Shown: positions 742 to 18,736, counted from the first letter of the stretch. The stretch is 22,822 nucleotides of DNA from a virus (IMGVR_UViG_2645727821_000016); one strand, 5' to 3'. Notes: a model not told the origin generated them from the letters alone. Translations and numbers: made by a program.

Positions 742-1860
742 TCAAACAACCAACTTAACCCATTCCTGACCTCGAGTATCGTTATAGCGATCGGTGGTTG
801 CCTGGACTTTATGTCCTAGTAATGTTTTTGTATCGATACCCTGTGCACGGTACAGCCGTTCTGATAGAGAGCGTTGTTCATGAAATGTTGGCGGCGTTTT
901 TCCTGCTGGTGGAATTATCCCAGCCAGATCCCGTGCTTTGGCAAAGTAGTCGCTCAGGTTGTCTTTACTCATTGGCTTTGGTTGTTTCTGGTGCCGACTA
1001 TGGATTAGATATGGACTTAATATTCTGTCTCGGCATCCATCAATAACTTCTTTTAACGTTATCCCAATGGCATCACAGCGTAGTGTAAGCGGCAACGCCA
1101 GACGCATTCCGGTTTTTCCCTGGGTGATATGCAAGTGTTCGTTCCACACATCTGAAAAACGCATGTGGCAAATGTCATCACGGCGCTGACCAGTAACAAT
1201 CGCAAGAAGCATTGCGTTACGGATAAAGTGTTTTTCAGGCGTTGCATTGTAAATTTTTTGCCAGTCTTCCAGGGTGAGTCTGGCTCTGGTTACTTTAGGG
1301 ATCGGTTTACGGGTAGCCTCCGGAGGATTCCATCCGGGAGGAACTTCCCCTGCATGCTGTGCTTCTTTATAAATATCAACCCATAATCCACGGTTTACTC
1401 TCGCCGTACTGACCATGTCTTTATCCAGCCACTCATCCAGTATCAATGCAAAGTCTCTTACTTCCAGTTCTTTCAATGGGTGGTTTCCCAGACGGGAAAC
1501 CAGGTATGCAGCCATTCGGGCTTTTTCTTTGTGGGTTGTAGCTGCAATATCTCCATTTTTCAGTCGCGTGTCCTGTATTTTCAGATATCGATCAACCCAT
1601 GCCTTTAATCTAATACCCCGACGTTTTGTTGCTGACGGACTGTCATCAATTTTGCGCATGAAATATTCAGCTTCTGCTGCAGCTATTCGCTGATTGGCTG
1701 TGGAAGCGATTTTTTCTGCCTTACCTTTGTCTGTTCCGAGTCCGTGAAATTTTCCAGTCACAGGGTTTTTATACTGGTAGTAAACTCTGCCAGTTCTGCG
1801 ATCAAACTTTTCATAAAGTCCGGCTACGTCAGTGCTGTTTTTTCGTGGCCTCGGTGACAT
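742..1860 (-). CDS. int: Tyrosine-type site-specific integrase (lambda Int family)
   Basis: 372-aa ORF whose C-terminal region (PPTFHEQRSLSERLY ... LLGHK ... RGQEWVKL) aligns by eye with lambda Int (PPTFHELRSLSARLY ... LLGHK ... RGREWDKI), carrying the catalytic R/H/Y context. Its 5' end overlaps the excisionase 3' end, as is typical. Confidence 0.93.
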   Translation of the reverse strand: MSPRPRKNSTDVAGLYEKFDRRTGRVYYQYKNPVTGKFHGLGTDKGKAEKIASTANQRIAAAEAEYFMRKIDDSPSATKRRGIRLKAWVDRYLKIQDTRLKNGDIAATTHKEKARMAAYLVSRLGNHPLKELEVRDFALILDEWLDKDMVSTARVNRGLWVDIYKEAQHAGEVPPGWNPPEATRKPIPKVTRARLTLEDWQKIYNATPEKHFIRNAMLLAIVTGQRRDDICHMRFSDVWNEHLHITQGKTGMRLALPLTLRCDAIGITLKEVIDGCRDRILSPYLIHSRHQKQPKPMSKDNLSDYFAKARDLAGIIPPAGKTPPTFHEQRSLSERLYRAQGIDTKTLLGHKVQATTDRYNDTRGQEWVKLVV

Positions 1861-2098
1861 GAGTTAAAATCTCCTTCAGTGCATCATCATCGCCAGTATG
1901 AATTTCCGGCGCAATTCCCGTTTCACCAGGCCCAACAAATACTGCTCGGCGATCTATCAGCCAACGCCCACGAATTTTTTGTGGTCTTGGAACGATGTAT
2001 CCTAGTTTTCCGTATTTCACCAGGGTAGTGTTTGTTATTGGGAGACTGAACCGTTTTGGTTTCCACTCATCGAGCGTTATCAGGTACTGTTCGCTCAT
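1829..2098 (-). CDS. xis: Excisionase (Xis-like)
   Basis: Small basic ORF immediately upstream of and overlapping int. ATG at 2098 is preceded by GGAG about 8 nt upstream on the minus strand; the track's longer version begins at a GTG at 2107. Position and size are classic for xis. Confidence 0.75.
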   Translation of the reverse strand: MSEQYLITLDEWKPKRFSLPITNTTLVKYGKLGYIVPRPQKIRGRWLIDRRAVFVGPGETGIAPEIHTGDDDALKEILTHVTEATKKQH

Positions 2099-2159
2099 GG
2101 CTATCACTCCGGAACGCGCCAGTTGCAGAATACCAACGACAACTGGCGACGGTTGAACA

Positions 2160-4631
2160 TTAAAAATCAGCCTGACTCGGGATCAGTTTTTGCCAGATAG
2201 CTGAAACGTATTTTGCTTGGTAACGGGCGTCATCAAGTGCATTATGGCGCTCACCTTCGAATGGAATAGCCGTTCTGGCATCGAAGTCAATGGCTTTCCC
2301 CAGCTCGACGATTGTGCGTACATCGCGATCGTTGTAGTAACGCCACGGGCAGGGGATCCCCTGCCGTTCGTATGAACGGCGCAAAATCGTGTTGTCGAAG
2401 TTGGCTCCATTTCCCCAGACCTGAACAAAAAATTCACCGGAGTTTTCGTCGATAAATTCCCGCAATTGTAACAGTGCATCATCTAACGGGATTTCATCGG
2501 TCATAATGGCAGATTGCGCTTCGCGTGATTGCTTAAGCCACCGTTTAATGGTGCCCCGATCAATGACTCCGCCAGCAGTTTCCAGATCGATAGTCTTACT
2601 AAATTCCGGTCCCATATCTCCGGTTTGCGGGTCGAAAAATATTGCACCTATTGAGATGATCGGGGCATCAGGATTTTTTCCCATGGTTTCAAGGTCGATC
2701 ATTAGATGGTCACACGTCCTGCTGGTGGATGTGTCTTTTTGATGACCATGCACCTTAATTAAGGAATTTGTCGTCCTGCCAGTTTTATCACCGCTATCGT
2801 TATGCTGATAGTTGTCAGCATCTTCCGGATGCGGATGTCCAGGGCTTTCCATCTCCTCCGGAGCTTTTTCCTGAGATTCATCTGAATCTTCCTCGCAGAA
2901 TGTCTCATGGTAAGTTGCGTCACCCATTACTGAGCCACAGTCAGGGCATGTGCCCCCGCCAGTTTCCCCACAAACATTACAGGGATTTTTCTGTGTATGT
3001 TGCGCTGCTGGCTCCGGATGTATCGTTTTTGGTTCATTTTGGTGTGCGTCCTGGCTATTTTGTCCCGATTCTGGCCTGGTTTGTTCCGCTTCTGGTTGAT
3101 TCTGGTTCGAAGACTCGCGAGTCTGGATCCCCTTGACCCATTTCGGATCATTAGGGTCGCTAATCCCCTCAACAAATTCACCACGCGATACAGCAAGTAA
3201 CTTATCGGCGTCAGGCTGGCTGATATTGGCTGCCTGCATAATTTTGTTTACTTCGTCAGCGGTAACTTTTACCGGCCCTGGTTGTGCGGTCGTGTCAGAT
3301 GCACCAGTATTTTGTTGTGAACCTGAGTATGTACCGTTTTTGCGGGCGAAATATTCTTCTTTCGTGATTTCAGTAGCCCCAGCAGCCAGTGCCTTATCCA
3401 GACCAGAAAGTTTGTTTGCGCGACCGTATTTTTCGCCATCCTTGTCGGTGAAGAGGAAGTAGAACGGCCCCTCACGCTCTACAGATGGTTCGACTTCCAC
3501 TTTACATTCGGTTTTTTCGTTGTCCTGAATTGCCGTTTCCACTGCATCAGTTTCTGGTACTGGCGACGAGAGAGTATCAGTTGCGCTCTGATTTCTTCCT
3601 TCATCTTCAAACACGCCCTTTGTAGTCAGGTATTCAGTAATGTATTTGTTCAGTGCCACAGGGGCTTTGTGAATGTCGATCGGACGTTCACGGACAAGGC
3701 CAAAAATAGTCTGGCGATCGTAGCGAAGGGCATCAGGCTGTTTGCGCATTGATGCTGAGATACGCTTCCAGTCTTCGCGGTCGTTGTCGATAACTTCATT
3801 TTTTGCCCAGCGATGGATGCTGCCGTCAATGTTTCCGGCATCCACATCACCTGGCCAGAGAGCGTAGGCCAGTTCGTCATCCAGTGTTTTCCATGTCTGC
3901 TTGTATTCGCGATGAGTGGCAGCAATGACCGGGTTGATTTTTCCTGTTGAATTATCAGTGTTCTGTTGATTGGCTCTGGCGCGGGCGAGATCAACAACAG
4001 ACGTGTATTTTCCGGTTTCCTTGCGTTCACCTTCGCGACGTTTTTTCCAGATGCGCATCTCTGCCTGAATTTCGGGCCATTTAGCACCAGGAATACATTT
4101 ATGCTTAACCCACCCGATGGCATGCAGCTTAAGCTCCGGATACATAGCGTTAACTTCTGGCATTTTCATCAACGCTTCAACGATATGTCCGTCGAATGTT
4201 GCCATGTCTTCCTGCAACAATTCCTGCGCGCTAATCACCATATCAACGGTGATGTTTTCACATGTGTCGAACTTAACCATGACAGCGTTCTGTACTTCAG
4301 GGGCCAGCTTGTCAAAAGTGACGTTCATCGGATCTGATTCAGTCTCAACCGGGACAAAGGAAGCAGACTCCTCATCCCAGCGGTTTTCCTGCATATATTC
4401 AGCATCCCAGGAATCGAGGGCAGGGCGGGGTATACCGGGTTTATCCTCGCAAACAAGAAATTTATAAGCGCAGTCCTGAGCAGCCGGATAATGTTCCAGG
4501 AATTGCCAGTGAAATTTTGCGCGGGCGCGACGTTCATCACCGGCTTCAATGGCAGTGGCTACAGCGACTGCACCTTCTTCCTTTATTGCCTGTTCGTCCG
4601 GAATGGCGGCGCAAATAAAGACTTTACTCAT
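2160..4631 (-). CDS. Prophage exonuclease VIII (RecE)-like protein with internal Cys4 zinc ribbon and C-terminal DnaQ-like (DEDDh) 3'-5' exonuclease domain
   Basis: 823-aa ORF with a GAGGT Shine-Dalgarno upstream of ATG 4631. A central segment (DADKLLAVSRGEFVEGISDPNDPKWVKGIQTR) matches my recollection of a RecE segment. Zinc-ribbon motif CNVCGETGGGTCPDCG. The C-terminus carries DEDDh motifs: DLETMG (Exo I), VWGNGANFD (Exo II) and HNALDDARY (Exo III, H-x4-D). Confidence 0.85.
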   Translation of the reverse strand: MSKVFICAAIPDEQAIKEEGAVAVATAIEAGDERRARAKFHWQFLEHYPAAQDCAYKFLVCEDKPGIPRPALDSWDAEYMQENRWDEESASFVPVETESDPMNVTFDKLAPEVQNAVMVKFDTCENITVDMVISAQELLQEDMATFDGHIVEALMKMPEVNAMYPELKLHAIGWVKHKCIPGAKWPEIQAEMRIWKKRREGERKETGKYTSVVDLARARANQQNTDNSTGKINPVIAATHREYKQTWKTLDDELAYALWPGDVDAGNIDGSIHRWAKNEVIDNDREDWKRISASMRKQPDALRYDRQTIFGLVRERPIDIHKAPVALNKYITEYLTTKGVFEDEGRNQSATDTLSSPVPETDAVETAIQDNEKTECKVEVEPSVEREGPFYFLFTDKDGEKYGRANKLSGLDKALAAGATEITKEEYFARKNGTYSGSQQNTGASDTTAQPGPVKVTADEVNKIMQAANISQPDADKLLAVSRGEFVEGISDPNDPKWVKGIQTRESSNQNQPEAEQTRPESGQNSQDAHQNEPKTIHPEPAAQHTQKNPCNVCGETGGGTCPDCGSVMGDATYHETFCEEDSDESQEKAPEEMESPGHPHPEDADNYQHNDSGDKTGRTTNSLIKVHGHQKDTSTSRTCDHLMIDLETMGKNPDAPIISIGAIFFDPQTGDMGPEFSKTIDLETAGGVIDRGTIKRWLKQSREAQSAIMTDEIPLDDALLQLREFIDENSGEFFVQVWGNGANFDNTILRRSYERQGIPCPWRYYNDRDVRTIVELGKAIDFDARTAIPFEGERHNALDDARYQAKYVSAIWQKLIPSQADF

Positions 4632-4723: not shown

Positions 4724-4915
4724 TTAAAGACCTGCCGGGATTTCGTTATTATCCTGGTGAATAACTTTATCGACCGGGTAACAGTTACCGGGAATTTTCT
4801 GTTCGGTTGCTGCAGTCACACACTCCTGCATTGTCCTGTGAACACTGACTGCAGTATCAACTGGCTCTCCGGAAACAAGAAAAACTGTCAGAACAAGTGC
4901 AAATGCTGTATTCAT
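4724..4915 (-). CDS. Small secreted/membrane-anchored hypothetical protein (signal-peptide-like N-terminus)
   Basis: Start chosen at the internal ATG 4915, with AGGA 8 nt upstream. The N-terminus MNTAFALVLTVFLVSG is hydrophobic and signal-like. The start overlaps the stop of the upstream small ORF in an ATGA arrangement (4912-4915), suggesting translational coupling. Confidence 0.35.
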   Translation of the reverse strand: MNTAFALVLTVFLVSGEPVDTAVSVHRTMQECVTAATEQKIPGNCYPVDKVIHQDNNEIPAGL

Positions 4916-5100
4916 TGCCAGCATCCTTTTTGTATCGGACGTAAACGGGCCAACATTGAAAGAATGCATATTTTATTTAATAGCTCCCGTTCGTGTTTTC
5001 TCTTGTTAATGGCATCTTCAGTAAATACAGGGTTACTGATAGTGACACCAATTTCAAAACAACCTTCAGACGTATTAACGTTTGGTAATAACGTTTCCAT
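4912..5100 (-). CDS. Small hypothetical early protein
   Basis: Internal ATG at 5100 with GAGGA about 8 nt upstream; a 62-aa product in the leftward early operon; stop overlaps the downstream start. Confidence 0.3.
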   Translation of the reverse strand: METLLPNVNTSEGCFEIGVTISNPVFTEDAINKRKHERELLNKICILSMLARLRPIQKGCWQ

Positions 5101-5665
5101 TATCGCGTCCTCAACAATGAATTTTGTGATGCGGTGCCTGGTGCTTCCAGGTGACGTTAACCAGTTAACAATTAACGCCGGATACAGAGAATCCACCCAT
5201 AACACTGTTTTTGGTTTTAACTGTTCCGCGTGCGCTTAGCCGCATTCACCGCATCACAAAATTCACTTTAAAAAGGGCGGCAGAGCAGTCACGGAGTAAA
5301 ACTGATACCGCCAAACGTCACCAGAAAATTGATAACAGAGGGCGTTGCAGCGGGGTTGTCACTTAAGCGTATGGTCAACCTGACAACCCGGTGTCCTCAA
5401 CGGTGGAAGGAATAACCCCGCCATACTTACCGCCGCGCCATTTCGCGGATTGCCACAACCGGAAGCGCACGGTCGACGAAAATTTAACGACAGGCTATCT
5501 ATGAACCAGCTACCTCGCCGTGCGCTTTCGCGTTATGGTCTGACTTTTCAGGGAAATATCCTTTCAGTAAACTGTCAGTGCCGGATGCTCACCCGTGTCC
5601 GGCGCACGCACTCCACCTCACCCGTGGAGAACTCCTTAATTACCAACCTTAGCTTCGTTGGTTAG

Positions 5666-7467: not shown

Positions 7468-7876
7468 ACACATCCGCATGGCGATGAATGCCTGGGCGCG
7501 TCCTGATGGCGAAAAAGTTCCGGCAGCTGGAATAACCCAGGCTTATTTTGAGTTGGGTATGACGTTTCCTGAACTGTACGACGACAGCCATCCGGAAGCC
7601 CTGGCTCGCAATACCCAGAAAATTTTCCGCTGGATAGAGAAAGACACCCCTGATGCAGTTGAAAAAATTCAGGCGTTGTTACCAGCGATCGAAAAGGCAA
7701 TGCCACCTTTGCTGGTGGCCAGAATGCGCAGCCACAGTTCAGCTTATTTTCGGGAGCTGGTGGAGACGCGGGAGCGACTGGTGAGAGACGCTGATGATTT
7801 TGTCGCAGTGGCAATCGCCGGTTTCAATCAGATGAACCGTGGTGGCCCGGCAGGAAATGCTGTGGCAGTACATTGA
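7451..7876 (+). CDS. YdaT-like protein (occupies the CII position)
   Basis: ATG at 7451 preceded by AAGGGGGG; the product begins MKIKHEHIRMAMNAW..., and I recall Rac YdaT beginning MKIKHEH. It overlaps the cro-like gene by 17 nt. Confidence 0.65.
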   Translation: MKIKHEHIRMAMNAWARPDGEKVPAAGITQAYFELGMTFPELYDDSHPEALARNTQKIFRWIEKDTPDAVEKIQALLPAIEKAMPPLLVARMRSHSSAYFRELVETRERLVRDADDFVAVAIAGFNQMNRGGPAGNAVAVH

Positions 7877-7947
7877 CTGACAATAGCCATATCGAATCGC
7901 TTCCGGCAACTCGTGAGTAAAAAGATTCGGTATCAGAAGAGGTGAGT

Positions 7948-9018
7948 ATGGCTAACGCCTGGCTCAGATTATGGCATGACATGCCAAATGACCCTAAGTG
8001 GCGAACAATTGCCAGGGTGTCAGGGCAGCCAATTGCAACAGTGATGGCAGTGTATATCCACCTCCTGGTGAGCGCGTCACGAAATGTCACGCGAGGTCAC
8101 ATTGATGTCACGACAGAAGATTTGGCAAGTGCGCTCGACGTGACAGAAGAGGTAATTGATTCAATTTTGCAGACGATGCAGGGGCGGGTACTTGATGGTG
8201 ATTTAATCACTGGATGGGAAAAACGCCAGGTGCTTAAAGAGGACAACGGCAATATTTCGCAAACCGCAAAATCTCCTGCAGAGCGCAAGAGGGCGCAGCG
8301 AGAGAGGGAAAGAAAGCGGGAACAAAATGGCGATTGTCACGGCGCGTCACGAAATGTCACGCACATGTCACGACGAGTCACGACAGATAAAGATACAGAT
8401 AAAGATACAGATCAAGAAGATCAAAACACTATGGTCCATGGCGTAAAAAACGCCACGAACCAGGCAGGGGATGTTCAGACCGTCAATCTTGGTCAGCCAG
8501 CAGGCACGACACCGGAAGCCGATTCAGCGTATGCGCTGAAAGCCGATTCGGGCGCTGTGCAGCAGGTGATGACCGCAAGGCCGGAGCAATCACACCAACT
8601 GCAGCAGCCCGAAGCCGATTCCGCCATTCAGCGGGAAGCCGATCGGGTAGTCCCGGAAAACACCGGGCAGTCTGTGGGACGAGTGGATTATCCGGATGTG
8701 TTCGAACAGGTCTGGCGGGAGTACCCGTTGCGTGCTGGGGCAAACCCGAAGAAATCCGCTTTCAGTGCCTGGAAGGCCAGATTACGCGAGGGGGTGCCAC
8801 CAGAGGCCATGCTGGATGGCGTGAGGCGTTACGCAAGATACTTGGCGGCTACCGGGAAAACGGGAACGGAATTTGTTCAGCGAGCGACGACGTTTTTTGG
8901 ACCGGACCGGAATTTTGAGAACCCCTGGTTGCTCCCGGTAAGCGGCACGAACAACCAGCGTTGTGTGAATCATATTTCTGAACCGGATAACGAAATTCCG
9001 CCGGGCTTCAGGGGGTAA
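7948..9018 (+). CDS. Replication initiation protein (lambda O-like organisation, with internal origin iterons)
   Basis: ATG at 7948 with GAGGTGAG upstream. The position after the cro/cII-like genes fits a replication initiator, and the gene contains two clusters of helically phased GTCAC(G) repeats followed by an AT-rich tandem tract, the lambda O/ori arrangement. Confidence 0.7.
   Translation: MANAWLRLWHDMPNDPKWRTIARVSGQPIATVMAVYIHLLVSASRNVTRGHIDVTTEDLASALDVTEEVIDSILQTMQGRVLDGDLITGWEKRQVLKEDNGNISQTAKSPAERKRAQRERERKREQNGDCHGASRNVTHMSRRVTTDKDTDKDTDQEDQNTMVHGVKNATNQAGDVQTVNLGQPAGTTPEADSAYALKADSGAVQQVMTARPEQSHQLQQPEADSAIQREADRVVPENTGQSVGRVDYPDVFEQVWREYPLRAGANPKKSAFSAWKARLREGVPPEAMLDGVRRYARYLAATGKTGTEFVQRATTFFGPDRNFENPWLLPVSGTNNQRCVNHISEPDNEIPPGFRG
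8076..8112. repeat. Iteron-like cluster 1 (4 x GTCAC at about 10-bp phasing)
   Basis: GTCAC at 8076, 8086, 8096 and 8107; an inverted copy cgtgac at 8138-8143. Confidence 0.55.
8336..8425. repeat. Candidate origin of replication: iteron cluster 2 (5 x GTCAC at 10-11 bp phasing) plus AT-rich tandem gataaagataca repeat
   Basis: GTCAC at 8336, 8346, 8356, 8367 and 8377, immediately followed by gataaagatacagataaagatacagatcaagaagatcaaaaca. The 20-mer cgcgtcacgaaatgtcacgc occurs in both clusters. Confidence 0.6.
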
Positions 9019-9058
9019 GTGTTAATTTCTGGTCATGAGGTAATTTTCAGGAGGGCTT

Positions 9059-9481
9059 GTGGCAAAAGTTTTTACACAAGAAGAGCGGGAAAAAATTAAA
9101 GGACAGGTTGTTGAACTCGTACGCCAGAGTGGGCGTGAGACGTTACGGCAACTGGAAGTCAAGACAGGTGCGACAAGATATCTGATGAGCGTTCTCGCAA
9201 GAGAGCTGGTTGCCAGCGGCGATGTATGCAACTCTGGTTACGGGTTATTCCCGTCTGAACAGGCGCGTAAGGACTGGCAAAATGCCCGTAAAAAGCTCTC
9301 AAGGGCAAAGCTGAAGAAACCATCTGCGGTTGATCCGGACCTTATCTGGTCATTACCTGACGGAGAAATACGTCGCTACGACAGGCGTCAGAACATAATC
9401 TGTCGCGAGTGCCGGAAGAGTGAAGTTATGCAGCGCATATTGTCGTTTTATCAGGGTGATGTTCGGTATTTATTGAAGTGA
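9059..9481 (+). CDS. Hypothetical protein (replication-module associated)
   Basis: 140-aa ORF starting at GTG 9059 with AGGAGGG 3-5 nt upstream; basic; no recognisable motif. It occupies the slot where lambdoid phages carry a helicase loader but is too short to be one. Confidence 0.5.
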   Translation: MAKVFTQEEREKIKGQVVELVRQSGRETLRQLEVKTGATRYLMSVLARELVASGDVCNSGYGLFPSEQARKDWQNARKKLSRAKLKKPSAVDPDLIWSLPDGEIRRYDRRQNIICRECRKSEVMQRILSFYQGDVRYLLK

Positions 9482-9607
9482 CGAGATTAAAGTGCATTAG
9501 TTCAGATGCAAATTGACATTTTGTGGCACAGGGTAGAGCTAGCGTGGTTGTCCGCTTTGTGCCAATAGCGGACATTGCTGGCTCATGGTATGTTAGTTTA
9601 AGGAGGC

Positions 9608-9639
9608 AGGTTATGCTCTGTATTTCGCTGTGGTATAAT
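9608..9639 (+). promoter_or_regulatory. Candidate promoter with extended -10 (TGgTATAAT) for the AT-rich cassette
   Basis: tggtataat at 9631-9639 is a perfect TATAAT with an upstream TG; a weak -35-like TTATGC lies 17 bp upstream. If the ATG at 9613 is the true start, this element would be intragenic. Confidence 0.35.
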
Positions 9640-10635
9640 AGTTGCGCAATTGATACAAGGGAGCGTTACATCGTGAAAATTGTTTTCGAGGTTAATGGAA
9701 AGAAAGTTCCACTAAAATCTTTAAAATACATAAGCAAAAAAGATCAACTCGAAGTAATGAAAAACTGGTTCTTTGAAAACTTTGAAGATCCGGCAAATGC
9801 TTGTCCGTATGAAAGTAGAGAAGGTGGCTATGCTTACATATATGGCGGGCCGTATGATGCGAGCGAAGAACTACAATCCATCTTCGGTCAATATGTTAAA
9901 TCTGAGTATATTGAGGAATTAGTAGATGAATTACAAACACAATGTTTTGACTGGTCTGGAAACTCAAATAATATAGATGATTGGTACGATGATGATATCT
10001 ACGACGCTGTAACGTCTTCCGGTAATCCGTATTTAAAATTCATTGATAATATCGATAAAATAAAAAAACTTGCAAAAGATAAAACTGAACAACAGCAAAA
10101 AAACCACTTGCTTAGTTTGCTCTACACGAATGTTATTACAGCTTTGGAAACGCTTTATGTTGAGCTATTCATTAATTCTATAGAGAAAGATGATGTCTAC
10201 ATAGCCAATTGTATAGAAAAAGGTAAGACTGAATTTAAAGTAAGCAAAGATATTGCTGCGTTGCCTTTCAAGGGTGAACCCATCGAGAAAATTAGGGGAG
10301 AGCTAATCAGGTCAATCAAGGAACACTTGATCAGTGCAAGCTGGCATAGCACTAAAAAGGTAATCGACCGCTATGAAGCTACATTCGATATAAAAGTACA
10401 AAAAGACTGTCCGATAGAAGCTATTGAATTGGCAACCCTCAATCGAAATCACTTAGTGCATCGTGGTGGAAAGGATAAAGAAGGGAACCTCGTAGTGATT
10501 ACAGACCAGGATCTTGAAACGCTGATTGAAAATGCATCGAACCTGGCAATTATGCTCTACAACAGTTTAAATGTAGCAACGAATAAAACCACCATTTTGC
10601 AACCAGATGACAAACCGTTCATTCATGAATTTTAA
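9613..10635 (+). CDS. AT-rich cassette gene A: hypothetical protein with no assignable function (candidate defence/abortive-infection component)
   Basis: Long ORF with strongly AT-biased codon usage, unlike its neighbours. Start is ambiguous: ATG 9613 with AGGAGG 6 nt upstream, or GTG 9673 with AAGGGAG 9 nt upstream, or the track's 9523. A single R-x4-H (RNHLVH) lies near the C-terminus. Confidence 0.7.
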   Translation: MLCISLWYNSCAIDTRERYIVKIVFEVNGKKVPLKSLKYISKKDQLEVMKNWFFENFEDPANACPYESREGGYAYIYGGPYDASEELQSIFGQYVKSEYIEELVDELQTQCFDWSGNSNNIDDWYDDDIYDAVTSSGNPYLKFIDNIDKIKKLAKDKTEQQQKNHLLSLLYTNVITALETLYVELFINSIEKDDVYIANCIEKGKTEFKVSKDIAALPFKGEPIEKIRGELIRSIKEHLISASWHSTKKVIDRYEATFDIKVQKDCPIEAIELATLNRNHLVHRGGKDKEGNLVVITDQDLETLIENASNLAIMLYNSLNVATNKTTILQPDDKPFIHEF

Positions 10636-10650
10636 TAGCGCAGGTCATAC

Positions 10651-11652
10651 ATGGATATTCGCACACGAAAGACAAAATTTTTAGAGTCGTTAGATTCAAC
10701 TGAAGTGATACGCAAAGCAGTAAGTCTCGCTATAGATTGCATTATTGATAATCATAATAGTAATGAAGATACCCCCTTAGTTATTACCAGCTATGATGAT
10801 CTCTGTAGAATCCAGGTGCTAAATTATGTACAGGAGTTTTGCGAAGCTGCATTCCCTGATATGGATGAATATTACTTTAGTCCTAACATACTTCGCATCA
10901 ACGGCAAGACTAGTGAAGAAGCTTGTATTAACTTAATTAAACTCTTAAGAAGTACAAAAGGCATGCTATTCTGGTCCGATGCCCCATCGTGGTTCGCTAG
11001 CCTCCCCGACGGATTATTCCATGTTGTTAACATTGATCAAAAAATCGTTACTCGCGGCCTTAATAAGAAAAACTCTAAGCCGACAATAATCAATAAAGAT
11101 TACAGTGTAGATACACTACTATCAGAGCTATTTTTGAATGGCGCACACATGGAGCAACCCAACGTACACAACGTTTCTGAGGGAAACATGAAGTTCTATG
11201 ATGAATGCCATGCTGGATTAATCAGACCAATACCCGCTCCAATAGGCGCGTCATACGATGAAGAGATCACAATTAATTCTCCAGATTGGCAAAAGCTCGC
11301 GTGTGTAGCTTTACGCCGCTATCAGTCGAAGGAATGTCATGACGGAATGCAATGGGATACAACCGATCATGGTTGGACTGATGTAATCGCGTATCCATTC
11401 GTCGAAGAAATACAATCAATGGATAATAGTGGTTATCGACAATGTTTAGTTGGGCTGGTCACAATAAACAATTCAAATGCAAATTCTCCGTACCTATCTA
11501 CCGTTTGGATACATCCATTTTATCGCAGGAGAGGGTTATTAAGTAAGTTATGGCCAAAATTACAAGAGTTATATGGAAGTAACTTCGAAATTGAGCGACC
11601 TAATGAAAATATGAAAGCATTTCTGAAAAGTGCGAAACACGCAGATTACTAA
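10651..11652 (+). CDS. AT-rich cassette gene B: hypothetical protein with C-terminal GNAT-like (acetyltransferase motif A-like) segment
   Basis: 333-aa ORF, 15 bp downstream of gene A, on the same strand with the same AT-rich composition. The C-terminus reads ...CLVGLVTINNSN...YLSTVWIHPFYRRRGLLSKLWPKL, resembling the GNAT beta4-alpha3 acetyl-CoA-binding loop. Confidence 0.8.
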   Translation: MDIRTRKTKFLESLDSTEVIRKAVSLAIDCIIDNHNSNEDTPLVITSYDDLCRIQVLNYVQEFCEAAFPDMDEYYFSPNILRINGKTSEEACINLIKLLRSTKGMLFWSDAPSWFASLPDGLFHVVNIDQKIVTRGLNKKNSKPTIINKDYSVDTLLSELFLNGAHMEQPNVHNVSEGNMKFYDECHAGLIRPIPAPIGASYDEEITINSPDWQKLACVALRRYQSKECHDGMQWDTTDHGWTDVIAYPFVEEIQSMDNSGYRQCLVGLVTINNSNANSPYLSTVWIHPFYRRRGLLSKLWPKLQELYGSNFEIERPNENMKAFLKSAKHADY

Positions 11653-12059
11653 TTTATGAATCAGTCTGTGGAGTTAGGGTTGGTGTCAACAAGTAGGGTA
11701 AGAGCCTCAACGTGATGCTATGCCGACCTGCTCCCTGAGAATTCACACAGAAGGCTGCTAGCAATGTCTGCAGATCGCTCAAAGCGGACTAGAAGGTTAG
11801 CTTGCGTCGGACTTGGCGTATTTAAAGAAGTGCTGGTGGTGACTGGTTGTTGTGTTCCATTTCTACAGAACAAAATCACAGAAACTATACCCAATAGTTA
11901 TATTGAATCAATGATGAGACAGCCTCATATTTATCAGAACTGGTGTACGTCCAATACAGGAGGTTGTCGTGCTGGTTCTCAAATGTGCGCTAGCTATTGC
12001 GGCTGTAATGGCAATTTATTGTCTTGCTGTTGTTCTTATGGATCGCCTTTCTGATTGAT

Positions 12060-12269
12060 TTTATATTGGCGAGGTGACGGGAGTTAAGTAGAATTGCTGC
12101 GGGTGCTTGAGGCTATCTGCCTCAGGCATGAACACCAAAGGCAGATAGAGAAAAGCCCCAGTTAATATTACGCGTCCTGCAAGACGCTTAACATTAATCT
12201 GAGGCTCAATCTATGAACGGCAAATCTAGGTTAGCCTCTTACGTGCCGAAAGGCAAGGAGAAGCAGGCT
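12060..12269 (+). promoter_or_regulatory. hok mRNA leader region (probable location of antisense Sok-type RNA and an upstream overlapping frame)
   Basis: Structured leader upstream of hok: hairpin tgagg-ctatctg-cctca and a complementary aaaggcagatagag segment. The 5' segment gaggtgacggg (12071-12081) is partly complementary to the hairpin flank ccctcgccacctc (12447-12459) downstream of hok, fbi/tac-like. An in-frame upstream start at 12213 extends the frame to 70 codons. Confidence 0.35.
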
Positions 12270-12425
12270 ATGAAGCAGCAAAAGGCGATGTTAATCGCCC
12301 TGATCGTCATCTGTTTAACCGTCATAGTGACGGCACTGGTAACGAGGAAAGACCTCTGCGAGGTACGAATCCGAACCGGCCAGACGGAGGTCGCTGTCTT
12401 CACAGTTTACGAACCTGAGGAGTAA
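12270..12425 (+). CDS. hok: Hok/Gef-family type I toxin (HokD/RelF-like), 51 aa
   Basis: ATG at 12270 with AAGGAG at 12255-12260. The product MKQQKAMLIALIVICLTVIVTALVTRKDLCEVRIRTGQTEVAVFTVYEPEE has the single transmembrane helix and conserved Cys/Glu tail of Hok-family toxins. Confidence 0.85.
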   Translation: MKQQKAMLIALIVICLTVIVTALVTRKDLCEVRIRTGQTEVAVFTVYEPEE

Positions 12426-12432
12426 GAGACCC

Positions 12433-12454
12433 GGCGAGGGAGAAATCCCTCGCC
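12433..12454 (+). other. Perfect 9-bp hairpin at the hok 3' end (fbi-like fold-back element)
   Basis: ggcgaggga-gaaa-tccctcgcc with no U-tract after it; consistent with the hok mRNA 3' fold-back element rather than a terminator. Confidence 0.4.
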
Positions 12455-12493
12455 ACCTCTGATGTGTCAGGCATCCTCAACGCACCCGCACGT

Positions 12494-12520
12494 AACCCGC
12501 TTCGGCGGGTTTTGTTTTTT
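12494..12520 (+). terminator. Rho-independent terminator downstream of hok
   Basis: aacccgc-ttcg-gcgggtt followed by ttgtttttt. Confidence 0.6.
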
Positions 12521-12592
12521 CCTGGCATTCTGGTTTACAATTCGCACGCCAGCCTGAACAACTGGCACCTGCTGCGCCAGCAGAGACAACCG

Positions 12593-12871
12593 ATGGCGCA
12601 CGATACCAAATTACACAATTCTGATGATTCTGCCGTCTTTGCCAGCAGGCACGGGCGGCGTTCCCGCACTTTCAAATCTGACTGGTTCCAGCATCCCCCA
12701 TGCACTGAAGAACAGGCCGAGTGGCTAATTCAGTGCTACCGCAGACACGGATACGAGATTAAGAAAGCCCTCAGCCTCGATTATCGTCACTGGATAATCT
12801 CCGTCAGGCTTCCTTACTCCGAACGATCACCGCGTCCGTCCCGCACATTCCAGCAACGCATCTGGAGGTAA
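12593..12871 (+). CDS. Hypothetical nin-region protein
   Basis: The track ORF begins at 12464, but that start would place the terminator inside the coding sequence, so the internal ATG at 12593 is preferred. Its stop lies 2 nt before the GTG start of the next gene. Confidence 0.45.
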   Translation: MAHDTKLHNSDDSAVFASRHGRRSRTFKSDWFQHPPCTEEQAEWLIQCYRRHGYEIKKALSLDYRHWIISVRLPYSERSPRPSRTFQQRIWR

Positions 12872-12872
12872 C

Positions 12873-13919
12873 GTGCGAGTATTACTTCGACCTGTTCTGG
12901 TACCGGAACTCGGGCTGGTGATCGTTAAGCCGGGCCGTGAATCCATGCCGGTATTCCACAATACCCGGGTACTGGTGGAGCCGGAACCGAAAAGCATGCG
13001 TAATCTGCCGTCCGGGGTTGTTCCTGCCGTTCGCCAGCCGCTAGTGGAAGACAAAACATTGCTGCCGTTTTTCAGTAACGCACGGGTGATTCGTGCTGCT
13101 GGTGGTGCTGGTGCATTGTCTGACTGGCTGTTGCGCCATATTAAATCCTGCCAGTGGCCACACGGCGATTATCATCACAGCGAAACCGTCATTCACCGTT
13201 ATGGTACCGGCGCAATGGTGTTGTGCTGGCACTGCGACAACCAGCTGCGTGACCAGACATCCGAATCACTCGAGCAACTTGCTCATCAAAACCTGTCAGC
13301 ATGGATGATTGACGTCATACTCCATGCAATGAATGGCTCGCAGGAACGGGAATTATCGCTGGCTGAATTATCCTGGTGGGCGGTCCGCAATCAGGTGGCG
13401 GACGCGCTACCGGAAGCGGTATTACGTCGTTCGCTGGGGTTGCGTGCGGAAAAAATCCGCTCAATGTACCGTGAAAGCGACATCGTACCGGGAGAGCAGA
13501 CCGCCACCAGCATACTGAAGCAGCGCACAAAAAATCTTGCGCCGCTGCCTCACGCCCACCAGCAAAACCCGCCACAGGAAGAGACGGTGGTCAGCATTGC
13601 CGTTGATCCTGAGTCTCCGGAATCTTTCATGAAACGACCTAAACGTCGCCGCTGGGTTAACGAGAAATACACACGCTGGGTGAAGACACAGCCGTGTGCG
13701 TGTTGTGGTAAGCCAGCCGACGATCCCCATCACCTGATTGGTCATGGTCAGGGCGGAATGGGGACAAAATCTCACGATATTTTCACGCTACCGCTGTGTC
13801 GGGAGCATCACAACGAGCTTCATGCGGATCCTCTGGCGTTCGAAGAAAAGCATGGTTCTCAGGTTGATTTAATTTTTCGTTTTCTTGATCACGCCTTTGC
13901 AACTGGCGTGCTTGGGTAA
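12873..13919 (+). CDS. DUF968-like nin-region protein with C-terminal Cys/His (HNH-like) motif
   Basis: GTG start at 12873 with TGGAGG 5 nt upstream. The C-terminus reads PCACCGKPADDPHHLIGHGQGGMGTKSHDIFTLPLCREHHNELH, a zinc-binding HNH-like signature. The DUF968 naming is by recall. Confidence 0.75.
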   Translation: MRVLLRPVLVPELGLVIVKPGRESMPVFHNTRVLVEPEPKSMRNLPSGVVPAVRQPLVEDKTLLPFFSNARVIRAAGGAGALSDWLLRHIKSCQWPHGDYHHSETVIHRYGTGAMVLCWHCDNQLRDQTSESLEQLAHQNLSAWMIDVILHAMNGSQERELSLAELSWWAVRNQVADALPEAVLRRSLGLRAEKIRSMYRESDIVPGEQTATSILKQRTKNLAPLPHAHQQNPPQEETVVSIAVDPESPESFMKRPKRRRWVNEKYTRWVKTQPCACCGKPADDPHHLIGHGQGGMGTKSHDIFTLPLCREHHNELHADPLAFEEKHGSQVDLIFRFLDHAFATGVLG

Positions 13920-13931
13920 AAGAGGTGACTG

Positions 13932-14306
13932 ATGCTCATAGATTTGGTTTTACCTTACCCGCCGACGGTGAACACTTACTGGCGACGCCGTGGCAGCACA
14001 TATTTTATCTCGGAGGAGGGAAAGCGTTATCGCCGGGCTGTGGCGCTTATTGTTCGCCAGCAGCGGCTGAAATTAAGCCTGTCCGGAAGGCTGGCGATAA
14101 AGGTGATTGCAGAGCCACCGGATAAGCGTCGTCGCGACCTGGACAATATCCTGAAAGCACCGCTGGATGCGCTGACGCATGCGGGAGTGTTAATGGACGA
14201 TGAGCAGTTTGATGAAATCAATATCGTTCGTGGTCAGCCAGTATCTGGTGGACGTATGGGGGTGAAGATTTACCCCATAATGCATGAAGAGCAGGTCAAA
14301 AAATGA
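13932..14306 (+). CDS. rusA: Holliday junction resolvase RusA
   Basis: 124-aa protein with the RusA hallmarks LPYPPTVNTYWRRRG and DKRRRDLDNILKAPLDALTHAGVLMDDEQ, aligning to E. coli RusA by recall. Confidence 0.9.
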   Translation: MLIDLVLPYPPTVNTYWRRRGSTYFISEEGKRYRRAVALIVRQQRLKLSLSGRLAIKVIAEPPDKRRRDLDNILKAPLDALTHAGVLMDDEQFDEINIVRGQPVSGGRMGVKIYPIMHEEQVKK

Positions 14307-15124
14307 AACTGGAAGATTTACCGAAATACTACTCCCCAAAATCCCCTGGCCTGACCGATGCATCGGCCTCAACGTCAAAAGATGCGCTGAGTATCACTGA
14401 TGTGATGGCCGCGCAGGGCATGACACAGAATCGGGCTGAGATGGGGTTTTCTGCGTTCCTGGGGAAAATGGGCATCAGTATGAATGACAGGGCGCGGGCA
14501 ACAGAATTACTGGCAGATTATGCACTCAGTCGGTGCGATCGTGTGGCGGCGTTGAGAAAACTTCCGGCAGAAATAAAACCGGTAGTGATGCGCATTATGG
14601 CTTCGTATGCGTTTGAAGATTATGCCCGTAGCGCGGCGAGCAAAAAACAGTGCCCTTGCTGTCACGGAAAAAAATTTATTGAAAGCGAGGTTTTTACAAA
14701 CAAGATCCAGTATCCGGATGGTAAGCCACCAGTGTGGGCAAAGTGCACAAAAGGCGTGTATCCGTCTTACTGGGAAGAATGGAAAAAAGTCAGGGAGGTG
14801 GTAAAAGTTGCCTGTCCGGAGTGTGGCGGAAAGGGTGAGGTTTCCACCGCCTGTAAGGATTGCCGTGGGCGTGGTGTCGCCATTCATCGTGAAGAGTCGG
14901 TAAAACGTGGTATGCCTGTTATCAGAGATTGCCAGCGTTGTGGTGGTCGTGGCTGTGAAAGGCTGCCATCAACGGAGGCATTTAATGCCATATGCAAAGT
15001 GACGAGTGCTATCACGCTTGATACGTGGAAAAAATCAGTGAAACGCTTTTACGATACGTTGGTGGTTCGGTTTGACATTGAAGAGGCATGGGCGGAGCGG
15101 CAGTTAAAGAGGGTAACGCGATAG
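14303..15124 (+). CDS. Late-gene antitermination protein Q-like (zinc-finger-rich)
   Basis: Start overlaps the rusA stop (ATGA). Several CxxC pairs are present (CPCCHGKK, CPECGGKGE, CKDCRGRG, CQRCGGRG). It is the last nin-region gene and is followed directly by a pR'-like promoter and terminator. The Q family is inferred from position and recall. Confidence 0.65.
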   Translation: MKLEDLPKYYSPKSPGLTDASASTSKDALSITDVMAAQGMTQNRAEMGFSAFLGKMGISMNDRARATELLADYALSRCDRVAALRKLPAEIKPVVMRIMASYAFEDYARSAASKKQCPCCHGKKFIESEVFTNKIQYPDGKPPVWAKCTKGVYPSYWEEWKKVREVVKVACPECGGKGEVSTACKDCRGRGVAIHREESVKRGMPVIRDCQRCGGRGCERLPSTEAFNAICKVTSAITLDTWKKSVKRFYDTLVVRFDIEEAWAERQLKRVTR

Positions 15125-15129
15125 TGTTG

Positions 15130-15157
15130 TTGATTTTTCCCGAATCTGTGGTAAATT
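15130..15157 (+). promoter_or_regulatory. Candidate late promoter pR' (TTGATT - 16 nt - TGgTAAATT)
   Basis: -35 TTGATT at 15130-15135 and an extended -10 TGgTAAATT at 15149-15157, 6 bp after the Q-like stop. Lambda pR' has the same TTGACT/TAAATT architecture. Confidence 0.45.
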
Positions 15158-15206
15158 TGCTCTAACGATGGGCGTTTTATGCCTGACGTTAGAAGATTTT
15201 TTACAC

Positions 15207-15228
15207 CCCGCCGCCTGGCGGGTTTTTT
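15207..15228 (+). terminator. Rho-independent terminator (tR'-like) downstream of the candidate pR'
   Basis: cccgcc-gcct-ggcggg followed by tttttt. Confidence 0.55.
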
Positions 15229-15348
15229 ATGACTGAAATCGCGTCAGTACAGTAAACGCGCTGGTGGCGGTGAATACCTGTCTTTCAGCTTGCTGGCTTT
15301 TTCGACAAGAGTTATTGGTGTGTCACGTTAACCGGAAAAGGAAAAGAC

Positions 15349-15546
15349 ATGCTAAAACAGCAGGATATGACAGAAACCGCCAGAGTGGTGTTTAATGAAT
15401 TAAGCGTTACCGACCCGGCGACAGTCGGGGAGATAGCGCAGAATACTTACCTTTCACGCGAACGCTGCCAGTTAATACTGACTCAGCTGGTTATGGCGGG
15501 TCTGGCAGACTATCAGTTCGGTTGTTACAGACGCCTTCCGCAGTGA
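15349..15546 (+). CDS. Small hypothetical protein (possible winged-helix-like)
   Basis: 65-aa ORF with AAAGGAAAAG upstream of the ATG. It is followed by a perfect 12-bp inverted repeat (ggctggtgggtg ... cacccaccagcc) at about 15571-15602. Confidence 0.4.
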   Translation: MLKQQDMTETARVVFNELSVTDPATVGEIAQNTYLSRERCQLILTQLVMAGLADYQFGCYRRLPQ

Positions 15547-15696
15547 AGGCTTTTTTATTTGTGGTAAATGGGCGGCTGGTGGGTGTTAGGGGCACCCACC
15601 AGCCATCTGCTCATGCGTCCGGATCACAAGCAAACCTCAGGCCCACTGCTTTGCGCAAAAGCAGAATGAGCCTATCAGAGACAGGCTTAATGATCC

Positions 15697-16746
15697 ATGC
15701 TTAATACTGTAAAAATATCCAGTTGTGAGTTAATCAACGCCGACTGCCTGGAATTTATCCGGTCGTTACCCGAAAATTCTGTTGACCTGATAGTCACGGA
15801 CCCGCCGTACTTTAAAGTGAAGCCTGAGGGCTGGGATAACCAGTGGAAGGGCGACGATGATTACCTGAAGTGGCTGGACCAGTGTCTGGCGCAGTTCTGG
15901 CGGGTGCTGAAACCTGCCGGAAGTCTTTACCTGTTCTGTGGTCATCGCCTGGCATCTGATATCGAAATCATGATGCGTGAACGCTTCAGTGTGCTGAACC
16001 ATATTATCTGGGCGAAGCCGTCCGGACGCTGGAACGGATGCAACAAGGAAAGCCTGCGGGCGTATTTCCCCGCCACAGAGCGCATTCTGTTCGCGGAACA
16101 TTATCAGGGGCCGTATCGTCCGAAAGATGCCGGGTATGCGGCGAAGGGCAGTGCACTGAAACAGCATGTGATGGCCCCGCTGATTTCTTACTTTCGTGAT
16201 GCGCGCGCGGCCCTGGGGATAACGGCAAAACAGATTGCAGATGCCACAGGAAAGAAAAACATGGTGTCGCACTGGTTCAGTGCCAGTCAGTGGCAGCTAC
16301 CGAATGAAAGCGATTATCTGAAATTACAGGCGCTGTTTGCCCGGGTGGCAGAAGAGAAGCATCGGCGTGGTGAACTGGAAAAGCTCCACCACCAGCTGGT
16401 GGATACGTATACCTCACTGAACCGGCAGTATGCGGAGCTGCTGAGTGAATATAAACATCTGCGGCGGTATTTTGGCGTGACGGTGCAGGTGCCGTATACC
16501 GATGTGTGGACGCATAAACCGGTGCAGTTCTATCCCGGGAAACATCCGTGCGAAAAACCGGCAGAAATGCTGCAGCAGATAATCAGCGCAAGTAGCCGTC
16601 CTGGTGATCTGGTTGCGGATTTTTTCATGGGGTCGGGTTCAACGGTAAAAGCGGCGATGGCACTGGGGCGTCGTGCGATTGGTGTTGAGCTGGAGACCGG
16701 ACGTTTTGAGCAGACAGTCAGGGAAGTTCAGGATTTAATCGTTTGA
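15697..16746 (+). CDS. Orphan DNA methyltransferase, beta-class N6-adenine/N4-cytosine type (DPPY motif)
   Basis: Motif IV VTDPPYF lies near the N-terminus and motif I FFMGSGST near the C-terminus, the IV-before-I order that defines beta-class amino-methyltransferases. No restriction endonuclease candidate is adjacent. Confidence 0.88.
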   Translation: MLNTVKISSCELINADCLEFIRSLPENSVDLIVTDPPYFKVKPEGWDNQWKGDDDYLKWLDQCLAQFWRVLKPAGSLYLFCGHRLASDIEIMMRERFSVLNHIIWAKPSGRWNGCNKESLRAYFPATERILFAEHYQGPYRPKDAGYAAKGSALKQHVMAPLISYFRDARAALGITAKQIADATGKKNMVSHWFSASQWQLPNESDYLKLQALFARVAEEKHRRGELEKLHHQLVDTYTSLNRQYAELLSEYKHLRRYFGVTVQVPYTDVWTHKPVQFYPGKHPCEKPAEMLQQIISASSRPGDLVADFFMGSGSTVKAAMALGRRAIGVELETGRFEQTVREVQDLIV

Positions 16747-16795
16747 AACGGATGAGATTGCAGAATTAATTACGCACCATTATTATTCTGCTCCC

Positions 16796-16871
16796 GGCCC
16801 TTTAGCTCAGTGGTGAGAGCGAGCGACTCATAATCGCCAGGTCGCTGGTTCAAATCCAGCAAGGGCCACCA
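16796..16871 (+). tRNA. tRNA-Ile (anticodon CAU, ileX/ileZ-like; tRNA-Met not formally excluded)
   Basis: 76-nt cloverleaf: acceptor GGCCCTT/AAGGGCC, D-arm GCTCAGTGGTGAGAGC, anticodon loop CTCATAA, T-loop GGTTCAAATCC, 3' ACCA. Close to E. coli tRNA-Ile2 by recall. Confidence 0.85.
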
Positions 16872-16878
16872 TCACATA

Positions 16879-16955
16879 CCGCCATTAGCTCATCAGGAAA
16901 GAGCGCCAGCCTTCGAAGCTGGTTGCGCGGAGTTCGGGTCCCCGAAGGCGGTCCA
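16879..16955 (+). tRNA. tRNA-Arg (anticodon UCG), somewhat degenerate (argN-like)
   Basis: Acceptor CCGCCAT/AAGGCGG with one mismatch; anticodon stem-loop CCAGC-CTTCGAA-GCTGG; T-loop GTTCGGGTCC with one mismatch in the T-stem; ends in CCA. Confidence 0.6.
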
Positions 16956-16968
16956 TTATCTGTATCCT

Positions 16969-17045
16969 GCGTTGTTAGCTCAGCCGGACAGAGCAATTGC
17001 CTTCTAAGCAATCGGTCACTGGTTCGAATCCAGTACAACGCGCCA
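16969..17045 (+). tRNA. tRNA-Arg (anticodon UCU, argO/argU-like)
   Basis: Acceptor GCGTTGT/ACAACGC; D-arm TAGCTCAGCCGGACAGAGC; anticodon stem-loop ATTGC-CTTCTAA-GCAAT; T-arm ACTGG-TTCGAAT-CCAGT; 3' GCCA. Confidence 0.85.
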
Positions 17046-17060
17046 CACTTATTTTCCCTG

Positions 17061-17089
17061 GCTCGCTTTTGCGGGCTTTTTTTTAAATG
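17061..17089 (+). terminator. Rho-independent terminator after the tRNA cluster
   Basis: gctcgc-tttt-gcgggc (one G-U pair) followed by an 8-nt T-run. Confidence 0.55.
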
Positions 17090-17090
17090 T

Positions 17091-17306
17091 CTCACAATTC
17101 AGGCGGTTGACTGTTGTCTGGTTTGCGGGGAGTTTGTTAAAAGAAACTGGCATGGTGAATCCCCCTGTGCGGAGGGGCAATCAGCGAGTAGGTATATGGG
17201 ATAATCGCGGATTCAGGTGCTGGTACTGAATTCACCGGGAGGCACCCGGCACCATGCAATGGCACATAGCGCCACTCTCCAGCCCCTCTCCGGAGGGGCT
17301 TTTCTG
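17091..17306 (+). repeat. Structured noncoding unit, copy 1 (promoter-like TTGACT, nested hairpins, terminator): candidate small RNA or attenuator
   Basis: Blocks shared with copy 2: ctcacaattcag, ttgac, tttgttaaaa, catggtgaatccccctgNgcggaggggc, caccgggaggcacccggcaccatg, and agcccctctccggagggg followed by a T-tract (terminator hairpin at 17281-17306). Confidence 0.5.
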
Positions 17307-18732: not shown

Positions 18733-18736
18733 TTCA

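Follow-up and report, generated by a model that had tools for sequence, protein, structure and literature searches.

A RecE-like carrier region joined to a DexA-type DEDDh exonuclease domain in the early operon of a Chi-rich lambdoid prophage

The gene at positions 2160..4631 on the minus strand of a 22,822-nucleotide stretch of viral DNA (IMGVR_UViG_2645727821_000016; "the window" below means this whole stretch) is a single uninterrupted open reading frame (ORF) of 823 codons. Its product appears to be a DexA-type nuclease built on a RecE chassis, in which the PD-(D/E)XK 5′-3′ nuclease of RecE is replaced by a DEDDh 3′-5′ exonuclease domain. A preliminary description of this DNA had proposed a RecE-like protein with such a DnaQ-type substitution, and the proposal is borne out by a full-length match of the C-terminal part to the Pfam family PF16473 and by the homology of amino acids 262–625 to RecE. 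As far as the sequence can tell, the likeness to RecE is real but partial and concerns the non-nuclease part only. The gene is supported by ORF finding, by an end-to-end match of the 823-amino-acid protein to PHROG 2082 (“exonuclease”, 1763 bits) and by 100% identical proteins in NCBI and UniRef, which are named either “3′-5′ exoribonuclease” or “exonuclease”; the precomputed Pfam matches on the identical database protein are PF27430, PF16473, and PF27432.

The C-terminal domain (amino acids 642–813; window 2193..2708, minus strand) matches PF16473, the Rv2179c-like 3′-5′ exoribonuclease domain, over profile positions 2–177 of 177 with an E value of 3.7e-64 and 216.1 bits, the curated cut-off being 27 bits, and a weak generic RNase_T match in Pfam overlaps the same stretch. 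The Exo motifs that the preliminary description had placed in the C-terminal ~200 residues are all there: Exo I is D646-x-E648, Exo II is D746, and Exo III is H796-x4-D801. In a domain family alignment of 39 sequences (the window domain and 38 representatives at 39–53% identity), D646, E648, D746, and H796 do not vary and conservation of D801 is 90% or higher; the five residues are retained in 68–69 of 69 close full-length homologues. By profile and by catalytic residues, the protein is assigned to the Rv2179c-like/DexA subfamily (PF16473) of the DEDDh (DnaQ-like) exonucleases, and this membership predicts a 3′-5′ polarity, opposite to that of RecE. A divergent PD-(D/E)XK domain hidden in the C terminus was ruled out, as the DEDDh match spans the C terminus from end to end.

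The only solved structures detectable by sequence in a phmmer search of the PDB were 8KEL and 8KEN (E = 1e-4, with low identity to DexA), which are phage T4 DexA and its S87A/D90A mutant, respectively (PMC12153337). DexA is a 3′-5′ DNA exonuclease that prefers single-stranded DNA and has a role in intron homing (PMC12153337). The window domain belongs to the same DEDDh subfamily as DexA and its standalone E. coli homologue EcD and shares all of their catalytic residues. Standalone EcD-like proteins of ~185 amino acids are the commonest form of the domain in enterobacterial prophages, whereas the window domain terminates an 823-amino-acid protein. When the phmmer alignment is read against the published analysis of DexA (PMC12153337), Y766 of the window protein aligns to W152 of DexA, D718 and P715 occupy the positions of D90 and S87, and the equivalent of D169, an acidic residue that serves 5hmC (5-hydroxymethylcytosine) recognition together with W152, falls outside the aligned stretch, with D782 and D784 nearby. 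The founder of PF16473, Rv2179c of M. tuberculosis, is linked to the window domain by the full-length match to the family profile; phmmer with this domain against the PDB returned no match to the Rv2179c entries. Rv2179c is a standalone exoribonuclease found in a non-phage context.

The preceding part of the protein (amino acids 1–625) carries the likeness to RecE. BLASTP against K-12 RecE aligned amino acids 262–625 to RecE residues 278–591 at 35% identity (E = 2e-49); this alignment ends at residue 591, where the RecE nuclease starts, and in 83 related loci no tblastn alignment to RecE went past about residue 592. At the DNA level, the homology to recE is confined to codons 475–618 (71% over 431 nucleotides). 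The NCBIfam equivalog model of RecE (NF007259, exodeoxyribonuclease VIII) matches amino acids 238–625 at model positions 261–602 of 877 with 225.4 bits, which is below its cut-off of 1269 bits. Among the defining properties of RecE, the window protein thus has the shared non-catalytic region, but neither the equivalog score, nor the PD-(D/E)XK domain, nor a RecT partner. RecE (exonuclease VIII of the Rac prophage, K-12 b1350) and the window protein are both encoded in an early-left operon between kil/dic-type genes and xis-int, and some sister proteins of the window protein have the RecE N terminus from residue 50 on. They differ in that the window protein lacks the PD-(D/E)XK domain (RecE 564/606–866) and an adjacent recT, which in K-12 Rac lies directly downstream of recE, and in that the first ~260 amino acids are dissimilar.

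This carrier region is composed of an N-terminal YdfE-type domain (amino acids 1–257; 3861..4631), a middle region (258–470; 3222..3860), which is covered by the BLASTP alignment to RecE from residue 278 onward, and a RecE-core segment (471–625; 2757..3221), which contains a stretch near-identical to K-12 RecE 455–591, all on the minus strand. The near-identical elements are the motif LLAxSRGEFVxGISDPNDPKWVKGIQTR, a CxxC-x7-CxxC motif, and an acidic tail. The Cys4 motif, C551-x2-C554-x7-C562-x2-C565 (2937..2981, minus strand), is a putative zinc knuckle or ribbon kept in 66–69 of 69 homologues, with the acidic stretch just after it. The preliminary description had singled out a Cys4 ribbon and an acidic linker; the motif and the acidic stretch are present, but they are not special to this protein: because K-12 RecE carries the same Cys4 motif (CNACGQTGGDNCPDCG) and the same acidic tail, both belong to the shared RecE-type module and not to the DEDDh domain. 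AlphaFold2 (AF2) did not confirm a zinc-ribbon fold at this motif, where its per-residue confidence (pLDDT) is below 50. The AF2 model of the N-module (amino acids 1–640), calculated from a shallow alignment, has a mean pLDDT of 52.7 and is confident only for amino acids 1–200 and 388–435. The latter (pLDDT 63–84), consisting of two β-hairpins and helices, belongs to the few stretches of the carrier that are folded with confidence and falls within a mini-domain of the middle region (amino acids 385–435; window 3327–3479, minus strand) with the pattern ER-GPFY...G-x4-GRANK...L-x2-G-x2-EI-x2-EEY-ARKNG. Seven divergent N-modules, 31–45% identical overall, all share its residues E385, R386, G388–Y391, R404, N406, and K407.

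The N-terminal domain relates the gene to the Qin prophage of K-12, in which ydfE (b1577) is a pseudogene cut by IS2E after ~256 codons and is left without the RecE-core and the exonuclease. Amino acids 1–256 of the window protein are identical to YdfE at 248 of 256 positions (97%), and the order dicF-dicB-ydfD-ydfE of the dicBF operon is the same as in K-12. Because of this identity and this gene order, the gene is identified as an intact orthologue of ydfE: the K-12 copy is truncated, whereas the window copy is complete.

The intact form is widespread. Of 5426 complete E. coli genomes, 4477 gave a megablast match to the gene and 3531 have a copy that covers 80% or more of it. PGAP labels the gene “3′-5′ exonuclease” or “exonuclease”; it also occurs in plaque-forming or sequenced phages (mEp460_ev081, Tritos, HannyBb, and PPompW prophages). 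At least 700 codons are present in 76 of 82 related copies, most of which encode 812–828 amino acids. The nuclease domain is 97–99% identical at the amino acid level with a pN/pS of 0.14 (68 unique proteins), and the RecE-core segment is 57–98% identical among relatives. A RecE-type instead of a YdfE-type N terminus is joined to the same DEDDh domain in 20 of 83 E. coli-type loci, and the same architecture is found at 40–60% identity in other genera (P0133, P0134, P0137, P0142, P0157). Two homologue searches gave almost only near-identical E. coli proteins, which limits the depth of the alignments. The pattern of divergence indicates that the gene is mosaic but maintained, with its nuclease domain under purifying selection.

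Each half of the protein has homologues in other settings. A search of 1.84 billion cluster representatives with the DEDDh domain returned 6628 proteins at E ≤ 1e-10, many of which are standalone proteins of ~180–200 amino acids that are 45–50% identical to the domain, and the domain is present in 626 of 50,697 phage records. Viral contigs searched with a narrower domain alignment yielded 80 diverse loci with 70 standalone and 10 fused copies, in which the DEDDh gene is nearly always located in the early-left operon and is usually the last gene before xis-int. In 12 of these 80 loci the gene directly upstream encodes an SSB (Pfam SSB, E = 2e-38), and 11 of the 12 are ordered annealase-SSB-DEDDh, the annealase being of the Rad52_Rad22 (seven loci, E = 5e-26), AAA_24/Sak4 (three, E = 8e-34), or ERF type (one, E = 4e-43). 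As a separate observation, standalone DEDDh genes of enterobacterial prophages (loci L085–L164, domain match at ~6001–6550) most often come after a conserved run of genes for c7 (123 amino acids), a YfdQ-like DUF2303 protein, a YfdR-like HD-domain protein, and a 216-amino-acid protein (cluster c5, 27 loci); other standalone loci have RdgC or ParB-like genes in place of this run.

Among cluster representatives, relatives of the carrier that share amino acids 3–450 end in varied C-terminal domains. One (P0138) has a PDDEXK domain (DUF3799), and five (P0136, P0145, P0151, P0171, P0211) have a domain of ~290 amino acids, standalone relatives of which have precomputed PF04098 matches and UniRef names of the “Rad52/22” type; a Sipho_Gp157 gene (E = 1e-38) always follows these carrier-annealase fusions. 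Three more (P0129, P0159, P0217) have small C-terminal domains of no assigned function. As the carrier ends in such varied effectors, the RecE-type region behaves as a carrier on which recombination effectors are interchanged.

The fusion gene itself has no annealase for company. Among the scanned ORFs of the 22.8-kb window, we found no match to the RecT/Redβ, Bet, ERF, Rad52/Sak, Sak4, SSB, Gam, and Abc2 families; tblastn of K-12 RecT matched neither the window nor any of 82 related loci, and no PD-(D/E)XK domain was found in the window. The preliminary description was accurate in that no recT-, bet-, or erf-like gene is adjacent, with xis on one side and small ORFs (ydfD-like, dicB) and DicF on the other. 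It had also named two observations that would contradict it, a PD-(D/E)XK fold in the C terminus and an annealase gene within 4632–5660, and neither was made. The small ORFs between 4632 and 6500 were considered as annealase candidates and rejected, since all of them are either identified (DUF1482, DicB, PHROGs 1744 and 2061, DUF1391) or shorter than 100 amino acids. The contiguous annealase, SSB, or anti-RecBCD genes that lie beside the nuclease in a canonical lambdoid Rec module are absent from this locus.

The window is rich in Chi octamers (GCTGGTGG), of which it has 17, versus 0.70 expected and at most 4 in 100 shuffles. They are located at positions 113, 905, 2721, 7711, 7756, 11832, 13098, 13504, 13556, 15260, 15575, 15596, 16389, 16395, 19843, 20245, and 20292; 13 of the 17 are on the plus strand, opposite to the exonuclease gene, and 14 fall within 7711..20299, between the replication genes (O-like) and cos/Nu1. 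In related loci the density is 3.4–4.4 Chi per 10 kb, and over 85% of the sites share a strand. The E. coli-type fusion loci have 221 in 650 kb, of which 214 are on the strand opposite to that of the gene, and standalone-DEDDh loci without an annealase have 202 in 499 kb (186 on the opposite strand). Chi is low and unbiased near the carrier-annealase fusions (37 in 298 kb) and is absent from the annealase-SSB-DEDDh loci (0 in 112 kb) and from K-12 Rac (0 in 12 kb); across 190 loci, the presence of an annealase-SSB-DEDDh triad goes with the absence of Chi.

In the survey of Bobay et al. (2013), 134 of 275 lambdoids had no recombinase, and Chi was over-represented between ori and cos (PMC3784561). 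According to Zheng et al. (2025), phage LLS and its relatives have no Rec module, are abundant in Chi, and are helped in their growth by RecBCD (PMC12315714). Our locus counts reproduce this published split, with Rec-less phages rich in Chi on one side and Rec-module phages on the other (PMC3784561, PMC12315714). The phage of the window belongs to this published class of Rec-module-less, Chi-rich lambdoids that rely on host RecBCD, and because its Chi excess and orientation match those of the class, the absence of an annealase is a matter of the phage's recombination strategy and not a peculiarity of the gene. Zheng et al. also place DnaQ-like 3′-5′ nucleases in lambdoid Rec modules, with phage epsilon34 as an example, and mention sporadic DnaQ-type nuclease genes “very near int”, as in the window (PMC12315714); both contexts recur in the loci compared here. 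In the text available to us, they describe no fusion of a DnaQ-type domain to a RecE-type N terminus, and the “RecE-2” proteins they report are said to have no nuclease domain (PMC12315714).

Combining these findings, we tentatively favor a reading in which the window protein is a 3′-end-trimming DNA exonuclease of the phage recombination region. A DNA substrate is favored because the DNase DexA is the closest relative of solved structure that sequence searching revealed, and a recombination role is favored because both halves of the protein are associated with recombination modules; the role of DexA in intron homing is consistent with break processing by its family (PMC12153337). In the proposed model, the gene would be transcribed leftward together with dicF, dicB, and ydfD after prophage induction, and the enzyme would act on DNA and not on RNA, trimming 3′ ends at DNA ends, breaks, or flaps while the phage replicates and recombines. 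Through the carrier, the nuclease would reach the sites or partners to which RecE and the annealase fusions are also brought. In a phage that has correctly oriented Chi and neither an annealase nor a RecBCD inhibitor of its own, the enzyme may work beside host RecBCD-RecA; for example, the removal of 3′ single-stranded tails could turn DNA ends into substrates for RecBCD loading. Such tails block the loading of RecBCD, and in E. coli the ends need to be blunted by ExoI-type enzymes. An extension of this model is decidedly speculative: the RecE N-region would be a portable targeting module for at least three kinds of effector (PD-(D/E)XK, DEDDh, or Rad52-fold), and its DEDDh form would be a phage-encoded helper of the RecBCD-Chi system that trims 3′ tails and so makes phage DNA ends into RecBCD entry sites in lambdoids that gave up their own annealase.

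Several observations count against a role in end trimming. Zheng et al. remark that 3′-5′ DNA exonucleases of the ExoI and ExoX kind destroy 3′ tails and thereby usually depress recombination, and they explicitly leave DnaQ-type genes next to int out of the Rec-module genes (PMC12315714). Accessory or moron genes, too, are typically found at the place that the gene occupies, last before xis-int, and the DEDDh domain is found both in Chi-rich phages without an annealase and in Chi-free phages with one, being tied to neither. As for the Pfam family, its founder Rv2179c is an RNase, and PGAP calls the protein an exoribonuclease. The function of the N-module is obscure even in RecE (PMC11611040), a fold search with the AF2 model of the N-module gave no match, and literature searches (ydfE, RecE with DEDDh, Rv2179c with phage) found no functional study of the window protein.

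The strongest rival, which we nevertheless regard as unlikely, is an HREX-like prophage defense, in which the DEDDh domain would selectively degrade the 5-hydroxymethylcytosine (5hmC) DNA of superinfecting T-even phages and thereby protect the lysogen. EcD digests T4 DNA, spares unmodified double-stranded DNA and, when expressed from a plasmid, protects cells from T4 (PMC12153337); the window domain aligns to DexA and is in the same length register as EcD. Kang et al. (2025) found DexA homologues in 3196 bacteria, most often in Escherichia (PMC12153337). Such a defense would explain why the gene is retained intact in most E. coli genomes, defective prophages included, and would suit both its wide distribution at ≥80% coverage and the high identity and low pN/pS of its nuclease domain. 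Its operon partner would fit as well, DicB being, reportedly since the work of Ragunathan and Vanderpool in 2019, a phage-exclusion factor. However, the gene lies in a repressor-controlled early-left operon, and a promoter and terminator scan around it gave no signal above chance, so it should be silent in the lysogen. Furthermore, the protein has Y766 where DexA has W152, which is needed for 5hmC recognition, and it keeps an aspartate (D718) at the position of D90, the tetramer-forming residue whose loss characterizes HREX and which is alanine in EcD. PADLOC gave only a generic DEDDh match (E = 1e-5), and the RecE-type carrier, its fusions to annealases and a 5′-3′ nuclease, and the annealase-SSB-DEDDh triads would all be left unexplained.

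The recombination-module associations bear on two further alternatives as well. It is improbable that the protein is an RNA exonuclease that trims phage or host transcripts, such as 3′ ends arising from DicF processing, or restricts RNA phages in the manner of the ISG20-like TONDO exonucleases, even though its family is named after the exoribonuclease Rv2179c, the identical NCBI protein is called a 3′-5′ exoribonuclease, and DicF lies 650 nucleotides upstream in the same transcription unit. DicF is produced by the endonucleolytic cuts of RNase III and RNase E, the sole solved relative detectable by sequence is a DNase, and both halves of the protein accompany DNA recombination proteins. Prophage-borne DEDDh exonucleases with auxiliary domains do defend against MS2 and Qβ, but the TONDO candidates are BLAST hits of less than 500 amino acids in ISG20-related clades, distinct from other defense DEDDh domains (preprint PMC13344964). 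An anti-defense role, in which the degradation would be directed during lytic growth against a host immune nucleic acid (such as retron msDNA, a signaling oligonucleotide, or guide DNA), is very improbable: it would agree with early lytic expression from a region that holds lambdoid host-takeover genes and with the ability of DEDD-type enzymes to degrade short oligonucleotides, but it leaves those associations unexplained, the protein matches no known anti-defense family, we found no literature in favor of this role, and the neighborhoods show nothing like a counter-defense cassette. The suggestion of an anti-defense role in the preliminary description thus finds no support, as comparison places both halves in recombination modules; the only experimentally supported non-recombination role of a homologue is host defense against T4, which is the opposite of anti-defense (PMC12153337). 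We give hardly any credence to the view that the gene is a functionless mosaic relic of illegitimate recombination between Rac-like and other prophages that persists by virtue of prophage abundance. The mosaicism is clear in the lower identity of the RecE-core relative to the DEDDh segment and in the two N-terminal types joined to the same nuclease, and the K-12 copy is truncated, but most related copies are near full length, the catalytic residues and the Cys4 motif are kept in 66–69 of 69 proteins, the nuclease pN/pS is low, the architecture recurs in other genera, and plaque-forming phages (mEp460_ev081, Tritos, HannyBb) carry it.

The gene order around the fusion is DicF, dicB, ydfD-like, exonuclease gene, xis, and int, its dicBF part being as in K-12. 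Downstream of the exonuclease gene are xis (1829..2107; PHROG 629, E = 5e-26; Pfam Exc) and the gene of a λ-type integrase (742..1860; Pfam Arm-DNA-bind_1 and Phage_integrase). Directly upstream is an intact Qin-type dicBF segment (4724–5326) comprising a gene for a small ydfD-like DUF1482 lysis protein (4724..4969; PF07358, E = 6.9e-24; placed as in the K-12 order dicB-ydfD-ydfE), the gene of the cell-division inhibitor DicB (4912..5205; Pfam DicB, E = 6.1e-37 over amino acids 36–97), the true start of which is probably internal, and the small RNA DicF (5275..5326; Rfam RF00039, 76.7 bits against a gathering score of 48). All of these are on the minus strand. A plus-strand ORF of 181 amino acids (4694–5239) was rejected as a gene, having no family match and being antisense to dicB and ydfD; it is probably spurious.

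The window as a whole covers the entire early region of a lambdoid prophage (Qin/Rac-like), and positions 2151–22822 are 98.8% identical to a UTI89 prophage. The order of the early region is S24 repressor, Cro-like, YdaT-like, O-like replisome organizer, DUF977, a low-GC two-gene island, DUF968, RusA, Q, DNA methylase, three tRNAs, lysis genes, and Nu1. The island (9523–11652, plus strand) has ORFs of 370 and 333 amino acids and a GC content of 37–40% within a prophage of ~50%; the pair gave only sub-threshold HEPN/RES-NTD1 and GNAT matches and no PADLOC match, and is a candidate moron or unrecognized defense or toxin pair. An N6/N4 DNA methyltransferase gene (15697–16746, plus strand) is followed by a tRNA-Met/Arg/Arg cluster (16796–17045) ahead of the lysis genes, a layout (15697–17045) also known from Stx-type lambdoid phages. 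Just past the integrase gene, at or outside the left end of the prophage, the minus strand of 1–722 carries a P1/P7-type immunity cassette in which the C4 antisense RNA (524–607, 68 bits), isrK (633–709, 80 bits), and the a1/b1 target of C4 (670–722, 53 bits) lie directly upstream of an ORF6N anti-repressor ORF (1–471).

Neither the protein nor its DEDDh domain nor its phage context is new: all are in public databases and in papers of 2013–2025 (PMC3784561, PMC12315714, PMC12153337). What is added here is modest: the pattern of carrier swapping and the annealase-SSB-DEDDh triads, neither of which we found stated in the papers available to us. The interruption of ydfE by IS2E in the Qin prophage of K-12 may help explain the silence of the literature on the protein. 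A nuclease that some two-thirds to four-fifths of complete E. coli genomes carry is nonetheless of some value as a target. The RecE N-terminal region improves linear-linear recombineering, and the function of the fusion could also assign a role to that region. Deciding between support of RecBCD-dependent phage growth and protection of lysogens against T-even phages would close a gap in the biology of lambdoid phages.

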